64,000 nucleotides of DNA. It comes from Escherichia coli (lineage in GTDB: Bacteria; Pseudomonadota; Gammaproteobacteria; Enterobacterales; Enterobacteriaceae). Shown piece after piece: positions 1,536 through 57,559 of the stretch (its first letter is position 1; the number at the start of each line of letters is the position of its first letter). Under the pieces are notes generated by a model. The model did no database searches. It had not been told where the DNA came from and saw only the letters and a program-made list of their open reading frames with translations. Location of the stretch: NCBI RefSeq assembly GCF_045037415.1, contig NZ_CP173438.1; one strand, given 5' to 3'. A program made the translations under genes and the position numbers.

Positions 1536-3014
1536 TTACGCATTCGACCAGCTCTGGATCGAATCCGCATTCCCCAATTCCCCATGCATCACTTCATACG
1601 ATTTTTTCAGGATCACATCAGTATGTTTGGTTAGGTCTTTGAAAATGCCTTTATTCATCGCGTCGTAGCGTTTGGCATTGCTCTCAATCGGTATGAAGAT
1701 ATCTTTCACGCGAACCATTTTATCGACAGCCGTTGTGTAATCCGGGTATAGCCCCAGACCTACCGCCGTATTGATCGCAGCCCCCAGACTTGCACAACCG
1801 TTAATGGCGTTTCGGCGTGCCGGAAGGTTGAACACGTCGGCAAAAATCTGCATAAACAGATCGCTGTTCGAACCGCCGCCAGTAATGATCACATGCTTTG
1901 CAAAGTGATTCATTTCATGACACATATTGTCGTAATTATTCTTCAGCGTCAGCGCCACGCTTTCCAGTATCGAACGATATATCCATGCGTAATCCATGCT
2001 GGAATCAAAACCGATCATAATCCCGCGTTTGTACGGTTCCCACGGATTGGTCAGCCAGTCCAGCACCGTCATCAGACCATTACAGCCAGGCGGCACGCAA
2101 GACGCTTTTTTGTTGAGCAAATCTTCCGGTGAAAGATCCTGTGCTTTGGCATCCTGAATTAACGACTCGCCTAACATGTCGCGCAGCCAGCTCACCGTCC
2201 ACATGCCTTTGCGAATACCGTAACCTTCATACAGCAATGTTTGCGGAATAGAAGACATAATCGGCCAGTACGCCACCGGATCTTTCGGCAGTGCTTTGCC
2301 GTTCATCATCAACGCGATATAGGTGCCAAGAGAAATTACCGCCGTTTCATCATCCAGTAACCCGGCTCCCAGAGCTTCTACCGGTTTATCACTGGTGGTA
2401 CAAACAACCGGCAGCCCAGCCGGGAAATGTGTCGCCAGCGCAGCTTGTGGTGTGATATGCCCAAGAATGGTGCCCGGCATTTGCACGTCAAAAAGCATCT
2501 GGCGGGGGATATTAAACTTTTCCATTACCGTAGCATCTTCGCTCCATGCCCAGCTCTTATAATCCACCGGCCACTGACCAAAATAGTTGGCGATATTGTC
2601 TTTAAACTCGCCGGTTAAGCGATGTGTCAGATAACCCGAAAAAGAGGTGACATAGGCCACGTCAGGATTAGTGTGTTCGTAAGGGCGTGTAACGCGTGCA
2701 TCCTGCCAGCTAATCAACGGCGCGGCTGGCGTACCATCGGCTTTCAATAGCGCACGGCAGCAACGGATTGAGCCCAGGCCAATGCCGACAATATCTTCTT
2801 TATTCCCGGCAAACTGGCTCATCAAATCGTGACTGGCAAAACATAGTGATGCCCATAAATCATCGTCAGGATGTTCTGCGGTATCGGCATCTGGCGTGTG
2901 CATCGGCTGCAATAAGCCTTTGCCTTCGCAAACCACATTACCTTCCAGATCGTACATCACCACTTTTGTGCTCTGACTTCCGCCATCAATCCCTATGATG
3001 TATTTTTTCGACAT
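1536..3014 (-). CDS. ygcE: FGGY-family carbohydrate kinase
   Basis: 492-aa ORF; N-terminal GIDGGSQSTK sugar-kinase motif; length and sequence consistent with E. coli YgcE. Confidence 0.85.
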   Translation of the reverse strand: MSKKYIIGIDGGSQSTKVVMYDLEGNVVCEGKGLLQPMHTPDADTAEHPDDDLWASLCFASHDLMSQFAGNKEDIVGIGLGSIRCCRALLKADGTPAAPLISWQDARVTRPYEHTNPDVAYVTSFSGYLTHRLTGEFKDNIANYFGQWPVDYKSWAWSEDATVMEKFNIPRQMLFDVQMPGTILGHITPQAALATHFPAGLPVVCTTSDKPVEALGAGLLDDETAVISLGTYIALMMNGKALPKDPVAYWPIMSSIPQTLLYEGYGIRKGMWTVSWLRDMLGESLIQDAKAQDLSPEDLLNKKASCVPPGCNGLMTVLDWLTNPWEPYKRGIMIGFDSSMDYAWIYRSILESVALTLKNNYDNMCHEMNHFAKHVIITGGGSNSDLFMQIFADVFNLPARRNAINGCASLGAAINTAVGLGLYPDYTTAVDKMVRVKDIFIPIESNAKRYDAMNKGIFKDLTKHTDVILKKSYEVMHGELGNADSIQSWSNA

Positions 3015-3040
3015 GATTTTTCTCCTGTAATTTTCCTGGC

Positions 3041-4318
3041 TTACTTGCTGCTAGCCATTGCGGGGGCGCTATCAGCAGTACGAATTTTTTGGAACAGCAA
3101 AAAGGTAAAGATGATCACCATGCCAAGCGCCGCCATGCCCATTAGCCACATGTTGCGATAGGCTTCTGCAGCGGGCAGGGTGTCTTGCCAGTAGCCGATA
3201 ATCGGGTAAACGAAGACATCCGGCAGGAATCCAATCACCGAACAAATACCTACCGTGGTGCCCATAATGTAAGACGGTGTTCTCGCTTCGCCAGGGCAGG
3301 CCCAGTACAGCCCGCGTGAGGCGTAACAGGTGAATCCCAGTAATAAAATCAAGCCAATCCCCATCGCGACCGATTGCGGGTTAGAGTTCGTGACGAGCAG
3401 GGCTGTCAACGCCAGCAAACCGATGATGGAAAGGATTTGGACCACGCGGGTAGGGGATTTCACTTTACTGTAGGTGGTGATAATGCCGCCAAGTGGGCCG
3501 CACAGCGCGCGGAAGATTTTGTTGATCACAATCCCCATGTAGCTCGCCGCCACCAGCGACATGCCGTACATTTCGGTCAGATAGTTGGTGGAGTAACTCA
3601 GAATGGCGTAGATGGTGAAGACACCAAAAATCACCATGCTGCAATACCAGGTAGTGCTGATGCGCAAAACGGCCAGGATGTCGCTAAGCTGGAATGACTG
3701 TTTTTCTTCGTTATTGGCACTGCGTAGGTTGTTGTTATCGCTAACAAAAAACCAACACAAAATGCCCAGCAGAATGTAAACCACACTATAGATAATAATG
3801 ACCGTTTTCAGGCTGGCGCTGTCATCCGGTGCAAAGCGAGAAAAGACCCACATGGTAAACACCGCCAGCGACATTACACCGACGCCGCGCAGCCCTTCCA
3901 TCCAGCCCATAATTTTCCCTTGCTCGCTATGATCGCCCAGCAACGATGCGGCTTTAATCGACACCGACCACAGCATTAAAATCGTCGTTATCGCAAAGGC
4001 GACCTGAATACAGAGCATTACCCACAGCGGTGGATATGTTGCCATTAACAGACCCAGTAATCCGGTAATGATCATCGCGGAAGTAATCATTTTGCGATGT
4101 GAAAATTTATCGGCAATAACGCCGCTAGGGGCATAGAAAATAATGGCCGCAATACCAAAGGTACTCATTATTAAACCTATCTCGGTATTGCTGAATCCCA
4201 TAAATTTTGCCATGGGAATTTGATAAATATAACGTAAATAAGCCAGGTCGAAACTAACGCCGCCGCTAAAACTAATTATCGCGAGGGTTATCCAACGGCG
4301 ATATGAGTTGTGTTGCAT
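3041..4318 (-). CDS. yqcE: MFS transporter
   Basis: 425-aa ORF, about 12 hydrophobic segments; 26 bp upstream of ygcE, likely co-transcribed. Confidence 0.85.
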   Translation of the reverse strand: MQHNSYRRWITLAIISFSGGVSFDLAYLRYIYQIPMAKFMGFSNTEIGLIMSTFGIAAIIFYAPSGVIADKFSHRKMITSAMIITGLLGLLMATYPPLWVMLCIQVAFAITTILMLWSVSIKAASLLGDHSEQGKIMGWMEGLRGVGVMSLAVFTMWVFSRFAPDDSASLKTVIIIYSVVYILLGILCWFFVSDNNNLRSANNEEKQSFQLSDILAVLRISTTWYCSMVIFGVFTIYAILSYSTNYLTEMYGMSLVAASYMGIVINKIFRALCGPLGGIITTYSKVKSPTRVVQILSIIGLLALTALLVTNSNPQSVAMGIGLILLLGFTCYASRGLYWACPGEARTPSYIMGTTVGICSVIGFLPDVFVYPIIGYWQDTLPAAEAYRNMWLMGMAALGMVIIFTFLLFQKIRTADSAPAMASSK

Positions 4319-4496
4319 ATCGTATTCCCATTTGTAATAGACAAAAAAAAGAGAAAAGTAAGCCGCCCTTTCAGGTGGATTACTTTTCTCAGGTCTCTAG
4401 TAATTGCAATAAGAAATAACATGGAAAGCAGAGGTGTTGTGTGAGAGTAATCACGCTTCTGCTTTTTTAAATTATTTGACAATACGAACATCACAC

Positions 4497-17399: not shown

Positions 17400-17800
17400 T
17401 TCCGGCATTTAAAGGTGAACATCGCAGGGAAAATTAACAGGTATAGAATGGCATTGGGTGCTTGAGGCTGTCTGGCGTTAAGCATTCGCAAGGTTCCAGA
17501 TGGACAAAAGCCCCAGGCGATATTTCTATCAACCTGAGGCTCGCGTTCGAACGTAGCAATTCGGATGTTAGTCTCTTCTTTGCAGGGAGGCAAGACATGC
17601 TGACAAAATATGCCCTTGTGGCAATCATCGTACTGTGTTGTACAGTACTGGGATTCACGTTGATGGTAGGCGACTCGTTGTGTGAGTTGAGTATCAGAGA
17701 ACGTGGTATGGAGTTTAAGGCAGTTCTCGCTTACGAATCGAAGAAGTAGCCACCACGCGGGGTAAAACCCCGCGTACTGAATTGTGATGGTTTGGCCTCC
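17400..17800 (+). other. hok/sok-type type I toxin-antitoxin locus (antisense Sok RNA expected on the minus strand over the hok leader; not mapped)
   Basis: Contains a Hok-family ORF with an in-frame upstream mok-like extension and a 3' GC hairpin (CGCGGGG-TAAAA-CCCCGCG, 17756-17774). Confidence 0.55.
17597..17749 (+). CDS. hokX: Hok/Gef-family membrane toxin (50 aa)
   Basis: [50 protein letters not shown]: one transmembrane helix plus conserved SLCE...AYES Hok signature; symbol assigned because the hok homologue next to cysH is, as I recall, the hokX/sokX locus. Confidence 0.65.
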
Positions 17801-29102: not shown

Positions 29103-29654
29103 TCATTTTAAGCGCGCAGTAATTGTCGCCACGCGTTCACCATATTTCACGGCTGTATCCAGATCGCCCGTAGGGATTTGCTCTGCACCCGCATCGGCTG
29201 GAGATTGCACCAGCAAACCGACCGAACCGCCCAGATTGTTTACATCTTCCCTGGTTGACGCAAGCACATTGGCAGGAGCCTGACCTAAACTCACCCACAG
29301 ACCGCCATGCTGTGAAGCCAGCGTTTGCAGATAGATCAGCGTAACTTGTTTATCGCCATTCAGGCTGGCGCTGTTGGTGAAACCCCCGAAGACTTTATCC
29401 TGCCATTTACGTGTAAACCACGCTTTGGAACTGGCATCAGCAAATTTCTTGAATTGCCATGGCGCACCGCCCATATAGGTGGGAGCACCGAAGATAATGG
29501 CATCGGCTGCGTCCAGTTTTTCCCACTCCTGCTCAGTGATATTTCCTTCGTTATCAATCGAAATTAAATCTGCATGGGCGCCTTGTGCCACTTTTTCAGC
29601 AACCAGTTTAGTGTGACCATATCCTGAATAATAAACCACAGCTATGTTTTGCAT
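29103..29654 (-). CDS. flavodoxin-like NAD(P)H:quinone oxidoreductase (WrbA family)
   Basis: 183-aa ORF; N-terminus MQNIAVVYYSGYGHTKLVAEKVAQGA closely parallels the WrbA FMN-binding loop; AT-rich surroundings. Confidence 0.75.
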   Translation of the reverse strand: MQNIAVVYYSGYGHTKLVAEKVAQGAHADLISIDNEGNITEQEWEKLDAADAIIFGAPTYMGGAPWQFKKFADASSKAWFTRKWQDKVFGGFTNSASLNGDKQVTLIYLQTLASQHGGLWVSLGQAPANVLASTREDVNNLGGSVGLLVQSPADAGAEQIPTGDLDTAVKYGERVATITARLK

Positions 29655-29878
29655 ATAAATATCCTTTTTACTAATGAATGATTTTTTGAGGCAGGTTTTA
29701 AAGATGTGGAGTATTATGCCTTGCAGATATTATTTAAACCATCAAATGATGAACATATTTTTTGAATGAGATAAACATAATATTCGAAGAAAAATGAATC
29801 TCGTAACGTAGTAATATCTAAAATAACAGTCTGTTCAGAGATGCTATAAATCAACAACACATTAATAAAGGACTACGT

Positions 29879-30922
29879 ATGCAAGGCATTAAAATATATA
29901 CAATTCTAGCCTCTTCTCTTATATCTGGTAGTGTTTTTGCTCAAACGGAAATTTCGACTTCAAATTCGTCTACAGTTAATGCAAGTTATGTTGAACCTTC
30001 AGCGGAAAAAATAATATCGCCAAGCGATAAACTCAATAACCTTTTTGAAAGAAATATGTCTCAGCCTTATATTTTACAAAAAATTGGCGAGAGAACTTAT
30101 TATGTTCAACGCTATTTTTATTCCACTACGTTTTATGTCGGAGACAAAGGGGTTTTGCTGTTTGATGCTCCGGAGGGTCGCGGTAAATATTTATTACAGG
30201 CAATTCGTGATGTGACTCCATTACCCGTAACAGCGCTGGTTTATTCTCATTACCATGTGGATCACATTGGCGATAGTCCATTTTGGAACGATGAGGCGAA
30301 GAAAGAAGGCGTGAATCTGCGTATTATTGCCAGTAAAGCCACTGCTGAAAAAATGCAATTTATGAACAGTCGCTTACCCGTCGCCACTCAGGTTTTAAGT
30401 AAAAAAGATGACCAGTTTAAATTTGAAAAGCAGACCATTGAATTACACCGATTTGTTAAAGCAGGACATACCGACGACCATTCTGTATGGTTGCTAAAAC
30501 AGGAAAAAGTAGCTCACAGCCCGGATCTCCTGAATCCTGACCAACTGCCGATGATGGGCTTCGCCGTATCGGATACGTTGGTTTACCATGACAGTAATTT
30601 GCGTCAGGTTGAAATGCTTGACTGGAAATATTTTATTGGCGGGCATGGTAATATTGGTTCACACGATGATTTTAAATTTCAACGCCAGTTTCTTAATGAT
30701 CTTCGGGATACGACAATTAAAGTCAGAAAAGAAGAAAGTTTTGGTAAATTTATGAATAAAACGGCAAATAATCATGCTGATTTTGCGCGAGCCCAGCGCG
30801 AAGCAATTATTAAAAAAGTAACTGAAGTATTACGTCCGAAATATGGCCATATGTATGGCTACGACGCATCTATGCCTGCTAATATCGAAATGGCAATAAG
30901 GTTGGTCGGTTCTTATTACTAA
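29879..30922 (+). CDS. secreted metallo-beta-lactamase-fold hydrolase
   Basis: 347-aa ORF; signal peptide (ILASSLISGSVFAQ); HYHVDH zinc-binding motif; markedly AT-rich versus flanking core genes. Confidence 0.75.
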   Translation: MQGIKIYTILASSLISGSVFAQTEISTSNSSTVNASYVEPSAEKIISPSDKLNNLFERNMSQPYILQKIGERTYYVQRYFYSTTFYVGDKGVLLFDAPEGRGKYLLQAIRDVTPLPVTALVYSHYHVDHIGDSPFWNDEAKKEGVNLRIIASKATAEKMQFMNSRLPVATQVLSKKDDQFKFEKQTIELHRFVKAGHTDDHSVWLLKQEKVAHSPDLLNPDQLPMMGFAVSDTLVYHDSNLRQVEMLDWKYFIGGHGNIGSHDDFKFQRQFLNDLRDTTIKVRKEESFGKFMNKTANNHADFARAQREAIIKKVTEVLRPKYGHMYGYDASMPANIEMAIRLVGSYY

Positions 30923-54960: not shown

Positions 54961-55420
54961 CGTTTTACTTTGTGTTGGCAATAGCATGATGGGCGATGAT
55001 GGCGCAGGCCCGCTACTGGCGGAAAAGTGCGCCGCCGCGCCGAAAGGTAACTGGGTAGTGATTGACGGCGGTAGCGCACCGGAAAACGACATTGTCGCTA
55101 TCCGCGAACTGCGCCCGACACGGCTGCTGATTGTCGACGCCACGGATATGGGGCTAAACCCTGGCGAGATCCGCATCATCGACCCGGCTGACATCGCCGA
55201 GATGTTTATGATGACTACCCATAACATGCCGCTGAACTATCTTATCGACCAGTTGAAAGAAGATATTGGCGAAGTGATTTTCCTTGGCATCCAGCCGGAT
55301 ATCGTCGGCTTTTACTACCCGATGACTCAGCCGATTAAAGATGCGGTGGAAACGGTGTATCAGCGGCTGGAAGGCTGGGAAGGAAATGGCGGCTTCGCGC
55401 AGTTAGCGGTGGAAGAATAA
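54953..55420 (+). CDS. hycI: hydrogenase 3 maturation endopeptidase
   Basis: 155-aa ORF; last gene of the hyc operon. Confidence 0.9.
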   Translation: MTDVLLCVGNSMMGDDGAGPLLAEKCAAAPKGNWVVIDGGSAPENDIVAIRELRPTRLLIVDATDMGLNPGEIRIIDPADIAEMFMMTTHNMPLNYLIDQLKEDIGEVIFLGIQPDIVGFYYPMTQPIKDAVETVYQRLEGWEGNGGFAQLAVEE

Positions 55421-55655
55421 TTCTTCATTAGGGAATTCAGGGAATTGAACATCAAAACAGGGATGTGCGCTTTTTTATTGAGCTTAGTGCTGCCTGCACA
55501 GGCCACCAGCTTTACCGAATATCTGCCAATGAGTGACAGCGAATACGCGCAAAAGCGGGCGCTGAAACCTCTCCTGACCATGCCTTATGATGCCGAGCAA
55601 ACCTGGCATTTTAGAAAAGTGGGCGTCTGACACGTTACTACAGAGAGAACAAAGA

Positions 55656-56075
55656 ATGACTGCTAATGCTGCACGCGCTGTTAAAGCAACAAGAGAACTG
55701 GTCAATGCAGTCCCCTTTCTGGGAGGCAGTGACTCAGAAGATGATTACCGTGAAGCACTGGAACTGGTCGAATATTTGATTGAAGAAGATGATACTAATC
55801 CACTTATCGACTTTCTGGCGAGCCGCATTGCAGAATATGAAAACAATAACGAAAAGTTTGCAGAGTTCGACAAAGCCGTTGCAGCAATGCCTGTTGGTGT
55901 GGCGTTACTTCGCACGCTGATTGATCAACATAATCTGACCTATGCAGATTTGAAGAACGAAATCGGCTCTAAATCCCTGGTCAGCCAGATTTTATCTGGA
56001 CAACGTTCCCTGACGATATCCCACATTAAGGCACTTTCAGCCCGATTTGGCGTTAAGCCGGAATGGTTTCTTTGA
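55656..56075 (+). CDS. XRE-family transcriptional regulator with C-terminal helix-turn-helix and acidic N-terminal domain (function unknown)
   Basis: 139 aa from the ATG at 55656 (longer ORF from 55587 lacks an RBS); C-terminal HTH LTYADLKNEIGSKSLVSQILSGQRSLTISHIKALSARFGV; acidic N-terminal half (SDSEDDYREALELVEYLIEEDD). Confidence 0.6.
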   Translation: MTANAARAVKATRELVNAVPFLGGSDSEDDYREALELVEYLIEEDDTNPLIDFLASRIAEYENNNEKFAEFDKAVAAMPVGVALLRTLIDQHNLTYADLKNEIGSKSLVSQILSGQRSLTISHIKALSARFGVKPEWFL

Positions 56076-56125
56076 CTGATGGCAGACGCTAAATCGCCTG
56101 ATGCGCTACGCCTATCGGGCTTTGA

Positions 56126-56157
56126 AAGGGCGCAGATTCTTAATTTTGCGCGCCCTT
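56126..56157. terminator. hairpin between convergent XRE gene and DUF4259-like gene
   Basis: Stem AAGGGCGC / GCGCCCTT with 16-nt loop, followed by GTTTGTCATT on the plus strand. Confidence 0.4.
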
Positions 56158-56166
56158 GTTTGTCAT

Positions 56167-56604
56167 TCAGGCTGTTGTCTTTACTACTCTTAATTTATCA
56201 GTAAGCTCAATCAGATATGCTTTTGCTTTTTCGCGTGCTCGCCCCTCGAAAAGCATTATCCACTCATGTGTGTCGTCGATTGTTTGTAAACGGCCCTGGA
56301 GTTTTTTGCTGAAAGTCGACGTGAGCTGATAACCGTCGAGTTGATCAATTTGTTTACTCGATGTGATTTTTTTCCCGGCTGCTTTTTGAATGATAAGTTC
56401 AACGAAACCGATAACATTATTATCGTAATTATCGTAGAGAAATTCTTCATCTCCCTGAAATCCGAACAAATCTTCATGCTGGCTTAAGCGTTGAACAATT
56501 GACTCGGCATCAAAGGTCGAATCATCTTGCAGTTGTTCCTCTACCCAATTAATCAAATCCAGCCCTTCGTCGCTTTCGAGAGCCTCCATTCCCCATGAAC
56601 CCAT
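56167..56604 (-). CDS. DUF4259-like hypothetical protein
   Basis: 145-aa ORF starting MGSWGMEALESDEGLDLINW (the MGxWG...D..LD N-terminus typical of DUF4259, assigned from memory); RBS AGGTAAGGA upstream. Confidence 0.6.
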   Translation of the reverse strand: MGSWGMEALESDEGLDLINWVEEQLQDDSTFDAESIVQRLSQHEDLFGFQGDEEFLYDNYDNNVIGFVELIIQKAAGKKITSSKQIDQLDGYQLTSTFSKKLQGRLQTIDDTHEWIMLFEGRAREKAKAYLIELTDKLRVVKTTA

Positions 56605-56896
56605 TTTGTATCCTTACCTGTTATTTCAGTCGAAATAGTATTATTCAATAAAGGTTCATCGCTAATCTGCGATGAACCTCAAAATACAATCATATGGATA
56701 GCTGACAAAGTGGTCGTTGTTCACGCCGTATCCGGCACGGTTGCTTCCCTTAAATCCTCCCCGTTACTGGCAATTACTTTTTTATACCACCAGAACGACT
56801 TGTCGGAAAAAAGTACCCAGATGTGGACTGGCAACGATAAAATATTCATTAGAAAACGGATTCTCTCTGCCTTACTACGATAAATACTGTCATCAC

Positions 56897-56924
56897 ATGT
56901 CATCGACACTAGTGTCGATGACAT
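56897..56924. promoter_or_regulatory. perfect 28-bp palindrome ATGTCATCGACACTAGTGTCGATGACAT; candidate FhlA-type activator site for hydN-hypF
   Basis: All 14 base pairs of the dyad verified position by position; contains the TCGACA / TGTCGA hexamers also clustered in the hyp-hyc control region; about 110 bp upstream of the hydN ATG. Confidence 0.4.
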
Positions 56925-57031
56925 CGTTTTTCCTGTAGTACAGAATTTAATTTCCTTAAATAACAGTAAATTAAAAACTGGCATGATTTGTGAATGTATC
57001 GGCGCATTAACTGTTATTGCTGGAGAATTTG

Positions 57032-57559
57032 ATGAACCGTTTCATCATTGCTGACGCGAGTAAATGTATTGGTTGCCGTACCTGTGAAGTGGCGTGCGTG
57101 GTTTCTCATCAGGAAAATCAGGACTGTGCATCGCTGACCCCGGAAACATTTTTACCGCGAATCCATGTCATTAAAGGTGTGAACATTTCCACGGCGACAG
57201 TCTGCCGTCAGTGTGAAGATGCACCGTGCGCTAACGTCTGCCCGAATGGTGCTATCAGCCGTGATAAAGGGTTTGTTCATGTCATGCAGGAACGTTGTAT
57301 TGGTTGCAAAACCTGCGTTGTGGCTTGCCCATATGGTGCGATGGAAGTGGTGGTGCGTCCGGTGATTCGCAACAGCGGCGCAGGGCTGAATGTACGGGCT
57401 GACAAAGCCGAAGCCAATAAATGCGACCTGTGCAACCATCGTGAAGACGGCCCGGCGTGTATGGCGGCTTGCCCGACCCATGCGCTGATTTGTGTCGATC
57501 GTAATAAACTTGAACAACTGAGCGCAGAAAAACGCCGCCGCACGGCGCTGATGTTCTAA
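57032..57559 (+). CDS. hydN: electron transport protein HydN (4Fe-4S ferredoxin-type)
   Basis: 175 aa from the ATG at 57032; four CxxCxxCxxxCP-type clusters. Confidence 0.95.

Follow-up and report, generated by a model that had tools for sequence, protein, structure and literature searches.

Organization of the hycI-hydN interval

The interval studied here lies between the end of hycI at position 55420 and the hydN ATG at 57032 of a 64-kb window (the whole stretch of Escherichia coli DNA that was analysed); at this locus the genome matches strains of the ST131 type. In K-12, hycI is followed by a 158-bp spacer and then by ascB-ascF-ascG-hydN, with neither a higA paralog nor a DUF4259-like gene; positions 55421-57031 of the window hold a 61-aa open reading frame (ORF), a 139-aa helix-turn-helix (HTH) gene, hairpins and a convergent 145-aa DUF4259-like gene, and the arbutin/salicin/cellobiose operon ascGFB is absent (Table 1). 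A first-pass annotation had named these elements, namely a possible small ORF with a signal peptide, an acidic protein with a C-terminal HTH, a convergent DUF4259-like protein, a hairpin between the two genes and the absence of an asc operon that K-12 carries at this position, and all of them are borne out by our searches; neither protein proved to be a housekeeping one. The region from 55300 to 57150 matches E. coli strain 98194 at 100%, and at least 80% of it is held by 720 of the 5,426 complete E. coli genomes against which probes were run for all population counts. An Rfam search of the interval returned no credible RNA family.

Table 1. Features of the hycI-hydN interval, in window coordinates.
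Feature	Position	Strand	Description
61-aa ORF	55445-55630	+	5' remnant (signal peptide and about 40 residues) of the gene for a 251-aa exported hypothetical protein
Deletion junction	55626-55627		GGGCGT followed by CTGACACG; BLAST breakpoints 3327 and 4361 of L001
higB remnant	55627-55659	+	Last 33 nt, with the stop overlapping the higA start (ATGA); equals L001 4361-4393
higA paralog	55656-56075	+	139 aa; N-terminal HigB-binding-type domain and C-terminal HTH
REP-like palindrome	56096-56120		Downstream of higA; common to asc+ genomes
Low-GC segment	56125-56718		594 bp, with the DUF4259-like gene; about 15 bp in its place in asc+ genomes
Terminator-like hairpin	56130-56151		Between the convergent higA and DUF4259-like genes
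DUF4259-like gene	56167-56604	-	145 aa; acidic (pI 4.45), all-helical, no signal peptide
Inverted repeat	56652-56679		Perfect 11-bp arms, AGGTTCATCGC and GCGATGAACCT, upstream of the DUF4259-like gene; from a repeat search
asc scar	56719-56798	-	80 bp; half a REP and the last 16 ascB codons (SFWWYKKVIASNGEDL, 56751-56798)
Filler	56799-56877		79 bp in place of ascB-ascF-ascG (about 4.1 kb)
ascG-hydN intergenic region	56878-57031	+	hydN promoter region; conserved, aligning from the ascG stop onward with L003-L006 and K-12

Homology between the window and comparison loci that retain the operon (asc+; comparison loci bear L numbers) extends to 56120-56124, at the end of a palindrome that we take to be REP-like by its likeness to the E. 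coli REP consensus. In the asc+ locus L005 a second REP comes straight after this palindrome, and then the end of ascB. The hairpin between the two convergent genes was picked up by a consensus scan, as a pattern match only, and has a 7-bp stem with four G-C pairs followed by a T-rich tail. Candidate roles for the inverted repeat upstream of the DUF4259-like gene are those of a terminator of upstream read-through or of an operator, and the repeat search also returned a perfect 28-bp palindrome at 56897-56924, inside the ascG-hydN intergenic region.

A higA paralog that has lost its toxin

The 139-aa protein carries a Pfam HTH_3 domain at residues 85-138 (E 7.9e-9), has a pI of 4.7 and is named a HigA family antitoxin in RefSeq. 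Among PDB sequences (phmmer) it matches E. coli K-12 HigA (5IFG_B, E 2.5e-35) over residues 9-138 of its 139, and we infer that its fold remains that of K-12 HigA, the toxin-binding domain at the N terminus and the HTH at the C terminus. The gene is carried by 2,508 of the 5,426 genomes, in one copy each.

Related genomes show what is missing upstream, since in them the full order 251-aa gene, higB, higA is seen downstream of hycI. Window positions 55300-55626 align to 3001-3327 of the locus of strain CU532-9 (L001), and there they include the start of a 756-nt gene at 3164-3919 whose 251-aa product matches nothing in Pfam, NCBIfam, PADLOC or PHROGs; the 61-aa remnant in the window has its own RefSeq entry as a hypothetical protein (WP_001312049.1). 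The annotated HigB coding sequence of CU532-9 follows at 4082-4393, and its product carries the Pfam HigB_toxin domain and matches K-12 HigB (5IFG_A) at E 1.9e-22. Relative to this strain, the window lacks 1,033 bp (3328-4360): the 251-aa gene has lost its 3' three quarters and higB 279 of its 312 nt, and the promoter region of higBA is gone as well, since the stretch upstream of higB (3920-4081) falls wholly within the gap. Breakpoints were taken from BLAST, as a pairwise MAFFT alignment put the large gap in the wrong place. A 1,033-bp deletion thus removed higB, and higA is here an orphan antitoxin gene whose toxin partner has been deleted: full-length HigA homology is present, and both an adjacent overlapping higB and a promoter/operator of its own are absent.

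The same loss is widespread. Intact higB is found in 1,092 of 5,426 genomes versus 2,508 for higA, and the exact junction recurs in 834 (200-bp junction probe, at least 80% covered), including asc+ strains (L005, L059, L060 and L064). The higB probe matched partly in 580 genomes, and the four of these that are listed match just the last 33 nt. An intact higB lies upstream of higA at this site in L001, L004, L066 and L072; the cognate HigB of paired strains bears the accession WP_000547563.1. A second, independent deletion of higB is present in L003, L061 and L062, and the HigA protein is identical in paired and orphan settings, a single accession (WP_000126294.1) serving both.

Ancestrally, then, hycI preceded the exported-protein gene and, after it, a type II higB-higA operon with the toxin gene first, a paralog of K-12 ygjN-ygjM. 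A single deletion of 1,033 bp joined the exported-protein gene at codon 54 to what is left of higB, its final 33 nt, taking the toxin and its autoregulated promoter and sparing higA with its ribosome-binding region. The remaining gene is co-oriented with hyc and starts 235 bp after hycI, and read-through from the hyc operon probably accounts for its transcription, as a consensus scan of the plus strand from 55420 to 55656 found no terminator-like site. The cognate promoter has a small palindrome, TGTTC-N-GAACA, of which the 64-kb window contains no copy, and the search for inverted repeats in the cognate higB promoter gave none above threshold.

A low-GC segment beside the remains of asc

To the right of the REP-like palindrome the window departs from the asc+ loci. 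The 594-bp segment that carries the DUF4259-like gene has a GC content of 0.406 versus 0.521 for the whole window and shares no similarity with the asc+ loci L004 and L005 at word size 7; it is an insert between the two REP elements that otherwise part higA from ascB. A probe for the gene (56140-56640) detects it in 725 of 5,426 genomes, always in single copy and on the chromosome, and we found no copy on plasmids or phages.

Beyond the segment, the 80-bp scar matches the 3' end of ascB and its flank in L003-L006 at 88.8-91.3% identity, its translation gives the AscB C-terminus, and homology with asc+ loci resumes at the ascG stop (56878). The filler that separates the two has no match in asc+ loci at word size 7. 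Within it the 8-bp sequence ACGATAAA occurs as a direct repeat, at 56834 and 56877, and CU532-9 lacks the 43 bp between the repeats. The junction of scar and filler occurs in 724 of 5,426 genomes versus 725 for the DUF4259-like segment, which at the population level is mutually exclusive with an intact asc operon. Because the ascB 3' scar persists, the operon was lost by deletion rather than swapped for a cassette, and that deletion lay away from the site of the DUF4259-like segment; it began within ascB and reached the ascG end, leaving the 16-codon scar and the 79 bp of filler. An earlier paper describes the loss of asc in ST131 (PMC3917908).

The segment running from higA through the DUF4259-like gene and the scar to the filler recurs in genomes resembling E. 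albertii at 96-99% identity, as does the filler taken by itself, versus 92.5-93% for hypF there. The hypF of these genomes is at most 93.5% identical to that of any of the 5,426 E. coli genomes.

Relatives of the DUF4259-like protein

The window protein matches Pfam DUF4259 (PF14078) weakly (E 0.014, 16.7 bits, residues 2-85), and four of eight aligned relatives match the same family at E <= 1e-3, the best at 4.3e-9. Its AlphaFold model is compact (pLDDT 86), and in a Foldseek search DUF4259 proteins take ranks 2-4, 6 and 7 and most of the lower ones, superposing over the whole length at TM 0.6-0.8, with predicted models on both sides; one further match lies within a 1,237-aa Knr4/Smi1-like protein. 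No solved structural relative was found, and NCBIfam, PADLOC and PHROGs gave no match. The allele of this lineage bears an L-to-F change and a 9-bp tandem duplication (56419-56436) that inserts YDN within FLYDN, the most conserved motif; a 142-aa allele is named a DUF4259 domain-containing protein in RefSeq.

Relatives are rare, forming 16 clusters among 1.8 billion representatives. The 45 related loci are all from Firmicutes or Bacteroidetes, bar one betaproteobacterial and three Fusobacterium assemblies, and the closest relative outside Escherichia, at 62% identity, is from Listeria costaricensis. A 1,427-aa protein (P0126) that had surfaced as a candidate relative was rejected as a repetitive autotransporter adhesin whose match is a compositional artefact. 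The contigs of the metagenomic relatives P0129, P0131 and P0132 proved too short to inform on gene neighbourhood. At 17 of the 45 loci, neighbours within 4 kb resemble proteins with Imm68, Imm33, Imm51, SUKH/SMI1_KNR4, SUFU, DUF4253, DUF4261 or DUF4303 domains, and some relatives are fused to, or lie 4 bp from, polyimmunity ORFs of 1,482-1,865 aa. These array-associated relatives are distant, with 26-43% identity mostly over the N-terminal 60-80 residues and two short matches at 55-62%. The nearest relatives (Listeria costaricensis, Isobaculum and a Staphylococcus-like genome) are, like the E. coli copy, solitary and set among housekeeping genes, and no toxin lies close to any of them; the window copy is flanked by higA, a REP element and the ascB scar, and no toxin or immunity gene adjoins.

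Discussion

Using a combination of junction mapping, population counts and protein comparison, our work here traces the hycI-hydN interval to what is, with high probability, a mosaic of three separate events rather than a two-gene module. The first-pass annotation had seen in it one 1.6-kb cassette in place of asc, and had likened the HTH and DUF4259-like proteins to the pairs of toxin-antitoxin or immunity modules, while noting that the genes are convergent. In favour of such a pair, the genes sit side by side, each encodes a small acidic product, the HTH protein is indeed from an antitoxin family, and all 725 genomes with the DUF4259-like gene appear to carry higA, 720 of them covering at least 80% of the interval. 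The replacement of asc fails, however, on the finding that many E. coli have higA flanked by hycI and an intact ascB, and about 1,780 genomes (2,508 versus 725) have higA without the other gene. The pairing fares no better beyond the antitoxin assignment: the partner of the HTH protein is HigB, encoded upstream in related genomes, and not the DUF4259-like protein. The genes are moreover convergent, with the REP-like palindrome and the terminator-like hairpin between them; the homology break at 56124/56125 marks them as parts of separate segments; DUF4259 relatives elsewhere lack a conserved HTH neighbour, and an acidic helical protein is not toxin-like. A single cassette is therefore largely refuted, and we would assign it only a minimal probability. 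The DUF4259-like gene is an independent solitary gene and no part of a higA pair, and the variation seen here between hycI and hydN is ordinary strain-to-strain variation, with no new two-gene system.

The mosaic reading leaves the question of whether the orphan antitoxin is maintained, and for what. Between the window and asc+ alleles that share its junction, which have diverged by about 5% across the region, higA differs by seven synonymous and no non-synonymous changes (pS 0.071, pN 0). Because these same-junction alleles differ only synonymously, the gene looks to be maintained by selection, a judgement that rests on seven substitutions, and recombination with paired alleles may also account for the pattern. 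[quoted passage not shown] We regard such an inert leftover as rather unlikely: neutral evolution would give the synonymous-only pattern with a probability of roughly 0.24^7, each of the 2,508 copies is covered over at least 80% of its length with identity below 95% in only five, and the end points of the two independent higB deletions are no more than 4 nt apart, immediately ahead of the ribosome-binding region of higA. A retained gene could also have been co-opted as a transcription factor at the tail of the hyc operon with targets unrelated to toxins. Its orientation and spacing relative to hycI, the lack of a terminator-like site between them, an intact HTH and the regulatory roles proposed for orphan antitoxins (PMC10790755) would all suit this idea; yet no candidate operator was found, the cognate palindrome is missing from the window, and a protein identical to that of intact higBA operons gives no sign of adaptation to a new role, so that we hold co-option to be quite improbable.

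Most likely, in our view, the present use of orphan HigA would be that of a stand-alone antidote or repressor against incoming HigB-type modules, that is, anti-addiction. Close relatives of the pair, at 78-80% identity, are frequent on plasmids of enterobacteria: 1,047 plasmid records contain a relative of HigB (for example WP_079899846.1), in 531 cases at 60-80% identity, and relatives of HigA on Klebsiella plasmids reach 77.7%. Antitoxins are often highly specific. If the orphan does neutralize the closely related HigB toxins that plasmids of Klebsiella and Enterobacter commonly carry, it would influence plasmid addiction in E. coli of the ST131 type.

For the DUF4259-like protein, the company kept by its distant relatives suggests that it may be of the immunity type, binding and blocking a toxin domain and kept as an orphan. 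The recurrence of relatives in immunity-domain arrays favours this, as do several features of the gene: none of the seven copies compared, from E. coli B2 and E. albertii-like genomes, has a broken ORF, and these copies show very few amino-acid changes; inspection of the DNA shows a good Shine-Dalgarno sequence; and the confident model has a compact fold. A role other than toxin immunity, or that of a hitch-hiker without current function, is however nearly as plausible, given that no family, defence or phage library names the protein, that it has no solved structural relative and that its nearest relatives are solitary; the lineage's own allele bears the YDN duplication within a conserved motif along with the L-to-F change, and many shortened variants exist in public data. 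A bolder reading would unite the two genes as a selected islet of antidotes without poisons, HigA acting against plasmid and phage-plasmid HigB and the DUF4259-like protein against a competitor's toxin, with the block having passed between E. albertii and E. coli B2 on account of its usefulness; we consider this unlikely.

The locus nevertheless offers a cleanly resolved case of chromosomal toxin-antitoxin decay, in which the toxin was lost first, at least two independent times, and higA has persisted unchanged after toxin loss in over half of its carrier genomes. The arrays described above provide a first contextual hint at toxin immunity for the uncharacterized DUF4259 family, on which our literature search found only one incidental mention; no paper on the higBA paralog of this locus was found. 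Neither the decay of the higBA pair nor the DUF4259 hint changes current concepts.

Comparison with known systems

The closest characterized counterpart of the orphan antitoxin is the HigB-HigA pair of K-12 (YgjN-YgjM; PDB 5IFG, 5YCL and 6KML), whose antitoxin equals it in length and in the layout of its two domains and whose toxin aligns over residues 1-100 with that of the related strains, in a toxin-first operon with a 4-nt overlap. Unlike that pair, the window paralog sits at another site, downstream of hycI, and its toxin and promoter are deleted. Plasmids and phage-plasmids of Klebsiella, Enterobacter and Leclercia carry HigBA modules of the same operon layout whose HigB is 79.6% and HigA 77.7% identical to the chromosomal pair, but these are intact pairs on mobile replicons, whereas the window retains a chromosomal antitoxin alone. 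The PADLOC system PD-Lambda-2 is related through the same proteins, the HigB of related strains matching PD-Lambda-2_A (E 6.8e-16) and the window HigA matching PD-Lambda-2_B (E 2.4e-14); HigA, however, spans only profile positions 9-115 of 402, about a quarter of B, component A is absent from the window, and no further genes adjoin higA.

At the level of populations, a survey of E. coli B2 and ST131 strains (mBio 2023; PMC10790755) described a reduced toxin repertoire and abundant orphan antitoxins, to which an antitoxin without its toxin at an ST131-type locus corresponds. We came across no mention of the hycI-hydN higA locus in that survey. In contrast to its broad scope, one locus is resolved here, with an exact deletion shared by 834 genomes, a second deletion and synonymous-only divergence.

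With Pfam DUF4259, the second gene's product shares the N-terminal MG[AS]WG...SDEGLD and FLYDN motifs and a predicted all-helical fold that superposes; it is, by contrast, divergent in sequence and isolated in Proteobacteria apart from near-identical copies in genomes resembling E. albertii. In being small, acidic, cytoplasmic, patchily distributed and horizontally moved, it resembles the immunity proteins of polymorphic toxin systems, and distant relatives adjoin or are fused to polyimmunity arrays (SUKH/SMI1-KNR4, Imm33, Imm51, Imm68 and SUFU). Unlike those proteins, the E. coli copy stands without an adjoining toxin or immunity gene, and its link to them runs only through distant relatives.

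Results

Every element that the first-pass annotation had described between hycI and hydN is present in the window, and its description is accurate, since the ORFs and the hairpin were found as described and the K-12 layout differs: there, hycI is followed by a spacer of merely 158 bp, then ascB, ascF, ascG and hydN. Its interpretation of the interval as a cassette holding a gene pair was only partly borne out. The interval combines three features, each of a known kind: an orphan HigA antitoxin, a deletion scar of the ascGFB (asc) operon and an independent DUF4259 gene. Positions 55300-57150 are 100% identical to E. coli strain 98194, and at least 80% of this stretch is held by 720 of the 5,426 complete E. 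coli genomes on which all population counts are based; the window is E. coli chromosome, and the locus occurs commonly, in 13% of complete E. coli genomes, and is already annotated.

Features of the hycI–hydN interval in the window
Feature	Position	Strand
hycI end	55420	
61-aa ORF	55445-55630	+
139-aa ORF (HTH, higA)	55656-56075	+
REP-like palindrome	56096-56120	
Terminator-like hairpin	56130-56151	
Convergent 145-aa ORF (DUF4259-like)	56167-56604	-
hydN start	57032	

The C-terminus of the 139-aa protein matches Pfam HTH_3, and the protein as a whole (residues 9-138) matches chain B of PDB 5IFG, the HigA of E. coli K-12 (E 2.5e-35); RefSeq labels its gene as a HigA family antitoxin. The acidic N-terminal domain noticed earlier aligns with that of K-12 HigA and is taken to be the toxin-binding domain. 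In strain CU532-9 (locus L001), the order is hycI, a 251-aa hypothetical protein, a 103-aa HigB family toxin (E 1.9e-22 against K-12 HigB, with Pfam HigB_toxin), the HTH protein, the DUF4259 protein and hydN. Window positions 55300-55626 correspond to L001 3001-3327 and those from 55627 onward to L001 from 4361 onward; because the BLAST breakpoints skip from 3327 to 4361, the window lacks 1,033 bp: three quarters of the 251-aa gene at its 3' side, the region upstream of higB, and higB itself apart from its last 33 nt. Judged by sequence, the HTH protein is thus a HigA whose toxin has been deleted in the window. The ORF previously proposed to encode a signal peptide exists; it represents the truncated 5' part of the 251-aa gene, for which searches of Pfam and NCBIfam returned no match.

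Window-type higA occurs as a single copy in 2,508 genomes and higB, at a coverage of at least 80%, in 1,092, so that ~1,400 carriers are orphan; the exact deletion junction of the window is found in 834. A second, independent deletion in ETEC-2265, S3 and TW10722 removed the promoter and higB and left the 251-aa gene intact. In yet other genomes, the 251-aa gene stands by itself, or higBA is present and the 251-aa gene is missing. The right-hand ends of the two higB deletions lie 4 nt apart (window 55627 versus ~6968 in L003, and L061 and L062, loci with the second deletion), immediately 5' of the ribosome-binding region of higA, which could reflect a deletion hotspot or selection keeping higA translatable.

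At the other end of the interval, 56719-56798 shares 88.8-91.3% identity with the ascB 3' end and flank of genomes that retain the operon (asc+), and its minus strand encodes SFWWYKKVIASNGEDL, the AscB C-terminus. Homology to asc+ loci resumes at 56878, the ascG stop, and the intervening 79-bp filler matched nothing in those loci. This scar junction is present in 724 of the 5,426 genomes. The alignments show that asc was lost by deletion and not by replacement; the earlier idea that a cassette had been swapped for asc fails on the surviving ascB remnant and on the DUF4259 segment, which sits at another position. Loss of asc in ST131 has already been published (PMC3917908).

Two copies of an 8-bp direct repeat, ACGATAAA, lie within 56834-56884 with 35 bp between them; CU532-9-type alleles are 43 bp shorter here, having neither the 35 bp nor one of the ACGATAAA copies, and E. 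albertii-like loci keep the full filler. A perfect 28-bp palindrome (ATGTCATCGACACT/AGTGTCGATGACAT) at 56897-56924, ~110 bp upstream of hydN, is also conserved in asc+ genomes. It is a probable regulator binding site of the formate-regulated hydN-hypF promoter.

Homology with asc+ genomes ends at 56124 and restarts at 56719, points that in those genomes lie ~15 bp apart within a REP element pair, the second REP type of which is found again downstream of hypF in the window. The 594-bp segment so delimited has a GC content of 0.406 (0.521 for the window), and its gene, found in 725 of 5,426 genomes and essentially always with the scar (724), was never found in searches of plasmids and phages. 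We read it as a separate insert. Given this 725/724 co-occurrence and the separate breakpoints, the segment and asc exclude each other across the population, yet they occupy different sequence positions; one complex event or two may have produced this state. Three loci (L065, L067, L068) have the order hycI-higB-higA-DUF4259 without the 251-aa gene, and IS66, IS21, IS4-like and IS200-like insertions between the DUF4259 gene and hydN; such an IS-bearing variant may account for the single genome with DUF4259 and no scar junction.

The proposed pairing of the HTH and DUF4259 genes does not hold up at the sequence level: they lie on different homology segments, are convergent with the REP-like palindrome and hairpin between them, and ~1,780 genomes have higA without DUF4259. 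Among DUF4259 relatives elsewhere, no HTH neighbour was conserved.

The DUF4259-like protein matches the Pfam model weakly; its relatives match clearly, and its AlphaFold model, a confident one (pLDDT 86), superposes on DUF4259 models, while a search of solved structures found none resembling it. The branch is rare (16 clusters among 1.8 billion representatives). A scan of ~100,000 species genomes yielded 45 loci, all in Firmicutes or Bacteroidetes save one betaproteobacterial and three Fusobacterium assemblies, and no relative in any other enterobacterium. The nearest relatives stand alone; they come from Listeria costaricensis (62% identity), Isobaculum and a Staphylococcus-like genome. Distant relatives, at 17 of the 45 loci, have genes no more than 4 kb away whose products are similar to proteins with Imm68, Imm33, Imm51, SUKH/SMI1_KNR4, SUFU, DUF4253, DUF4261, DUF4303 or DUF4274 domains, and in several Clostridia a polyimmunity ORF of 1,482-1,865 aa is joined to the DUF4259 gene or begins or ends 4 bp from it. 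With low to moderate confidence, our preferred guess for the DUF4259-like protein is an orphan of the immunity type. In the window allele, a 9-bp tandem duplication at 56419-56436 (ATTATCGTA twice, plus strand) adds YDN within FLYDN, the most conserved motif of the protein, alongside an L-to-F change; both may affect function of the predicted protein. The duplication is specific to the window-type allele (at least 99% identical in 555 genomes).

Twelve Clostridia loci (L020, L025, L028, L044, L047, L049-L051, L053, L055, L057, L058) all carry, upstream of the DUF4259 homolog, a conserved 322-546-aa protein whose CGGG...FPWGD motif is reminiscent of FGE-sulfatase domains; the distance is at most 100 bp at eight of them and 43-44 bp at seven.

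A block spanning higA, the DUF4259 gene, the scar and the filler (55656-56877) is 96-99% identical to five E. albertii-like loci (L066, L069-L072), which also have the ascB scar and whose source names include Escherichia albertii. Their hypF is merely 92.5-93% identical to that of the window, and at best 93.5% to hypF in the 5,426 E. coli genomes. This disparity suggests that the block was exchanged between species or is unusually conserved.

Elsewhere in the window, the sole annotated gene between cysH and iap (17597-17749) encodes a Hok/Gef family toxin; K-12 has its type I-E CRISPR-Cas locus here, which the window strain appears to lack. Between rpoS and ygbN (29103-30922), genes for a flavodoxin family protein and an MBL-fold hydrolase lie in the rpoS-mutS interval, a region known to be polymorphic in E. 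coli.

Discussion

The junction of the window, with a few nearby SNPs, recurs in the asc+ strains MS21324, FDAARGOS_1300, FDAARGOS_1295 and NCTC11151, which points to one old deletion event. Across a region ~5% diverged, higA of these alleles differs from that of the window by seven synonymous and zero non-synonymous substitutions (pS 0.071, pN 0), an outcome with a chance of ~0.24^7 given ~76% non-synonymous sites. We read this as purifying selection on higA after toxin loss, on the basis of seven substitutions and with recombination from paired alleles as an alternative; one frameshifted copy was found. As higA's own promoter and operator are gone and no terminator-like site was found between hycI and higA, we infer that its transcript most likely arises by read-through from the hyc operon. 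Plasmids often carry relatives of the higBA pair: those of HigB occur in 1,047 plasmid records (531 at 60-80% identity), and those of HigA reach 77.7% on Klebsiella plasmids, with one example within a phage-like plasmid. An anti-addiction role for the orphan HigA is therefore plausible.

The locus gives clean evidence that decay repeatedly began with the toxin while the antitoxin was kept, and the context of DUF4259 genes supplies a first clue to their function. A published survey of B2 lineages, including ST131, describes abundant orphan antitoxins and reduced toxin repertoires (PMC10790755).
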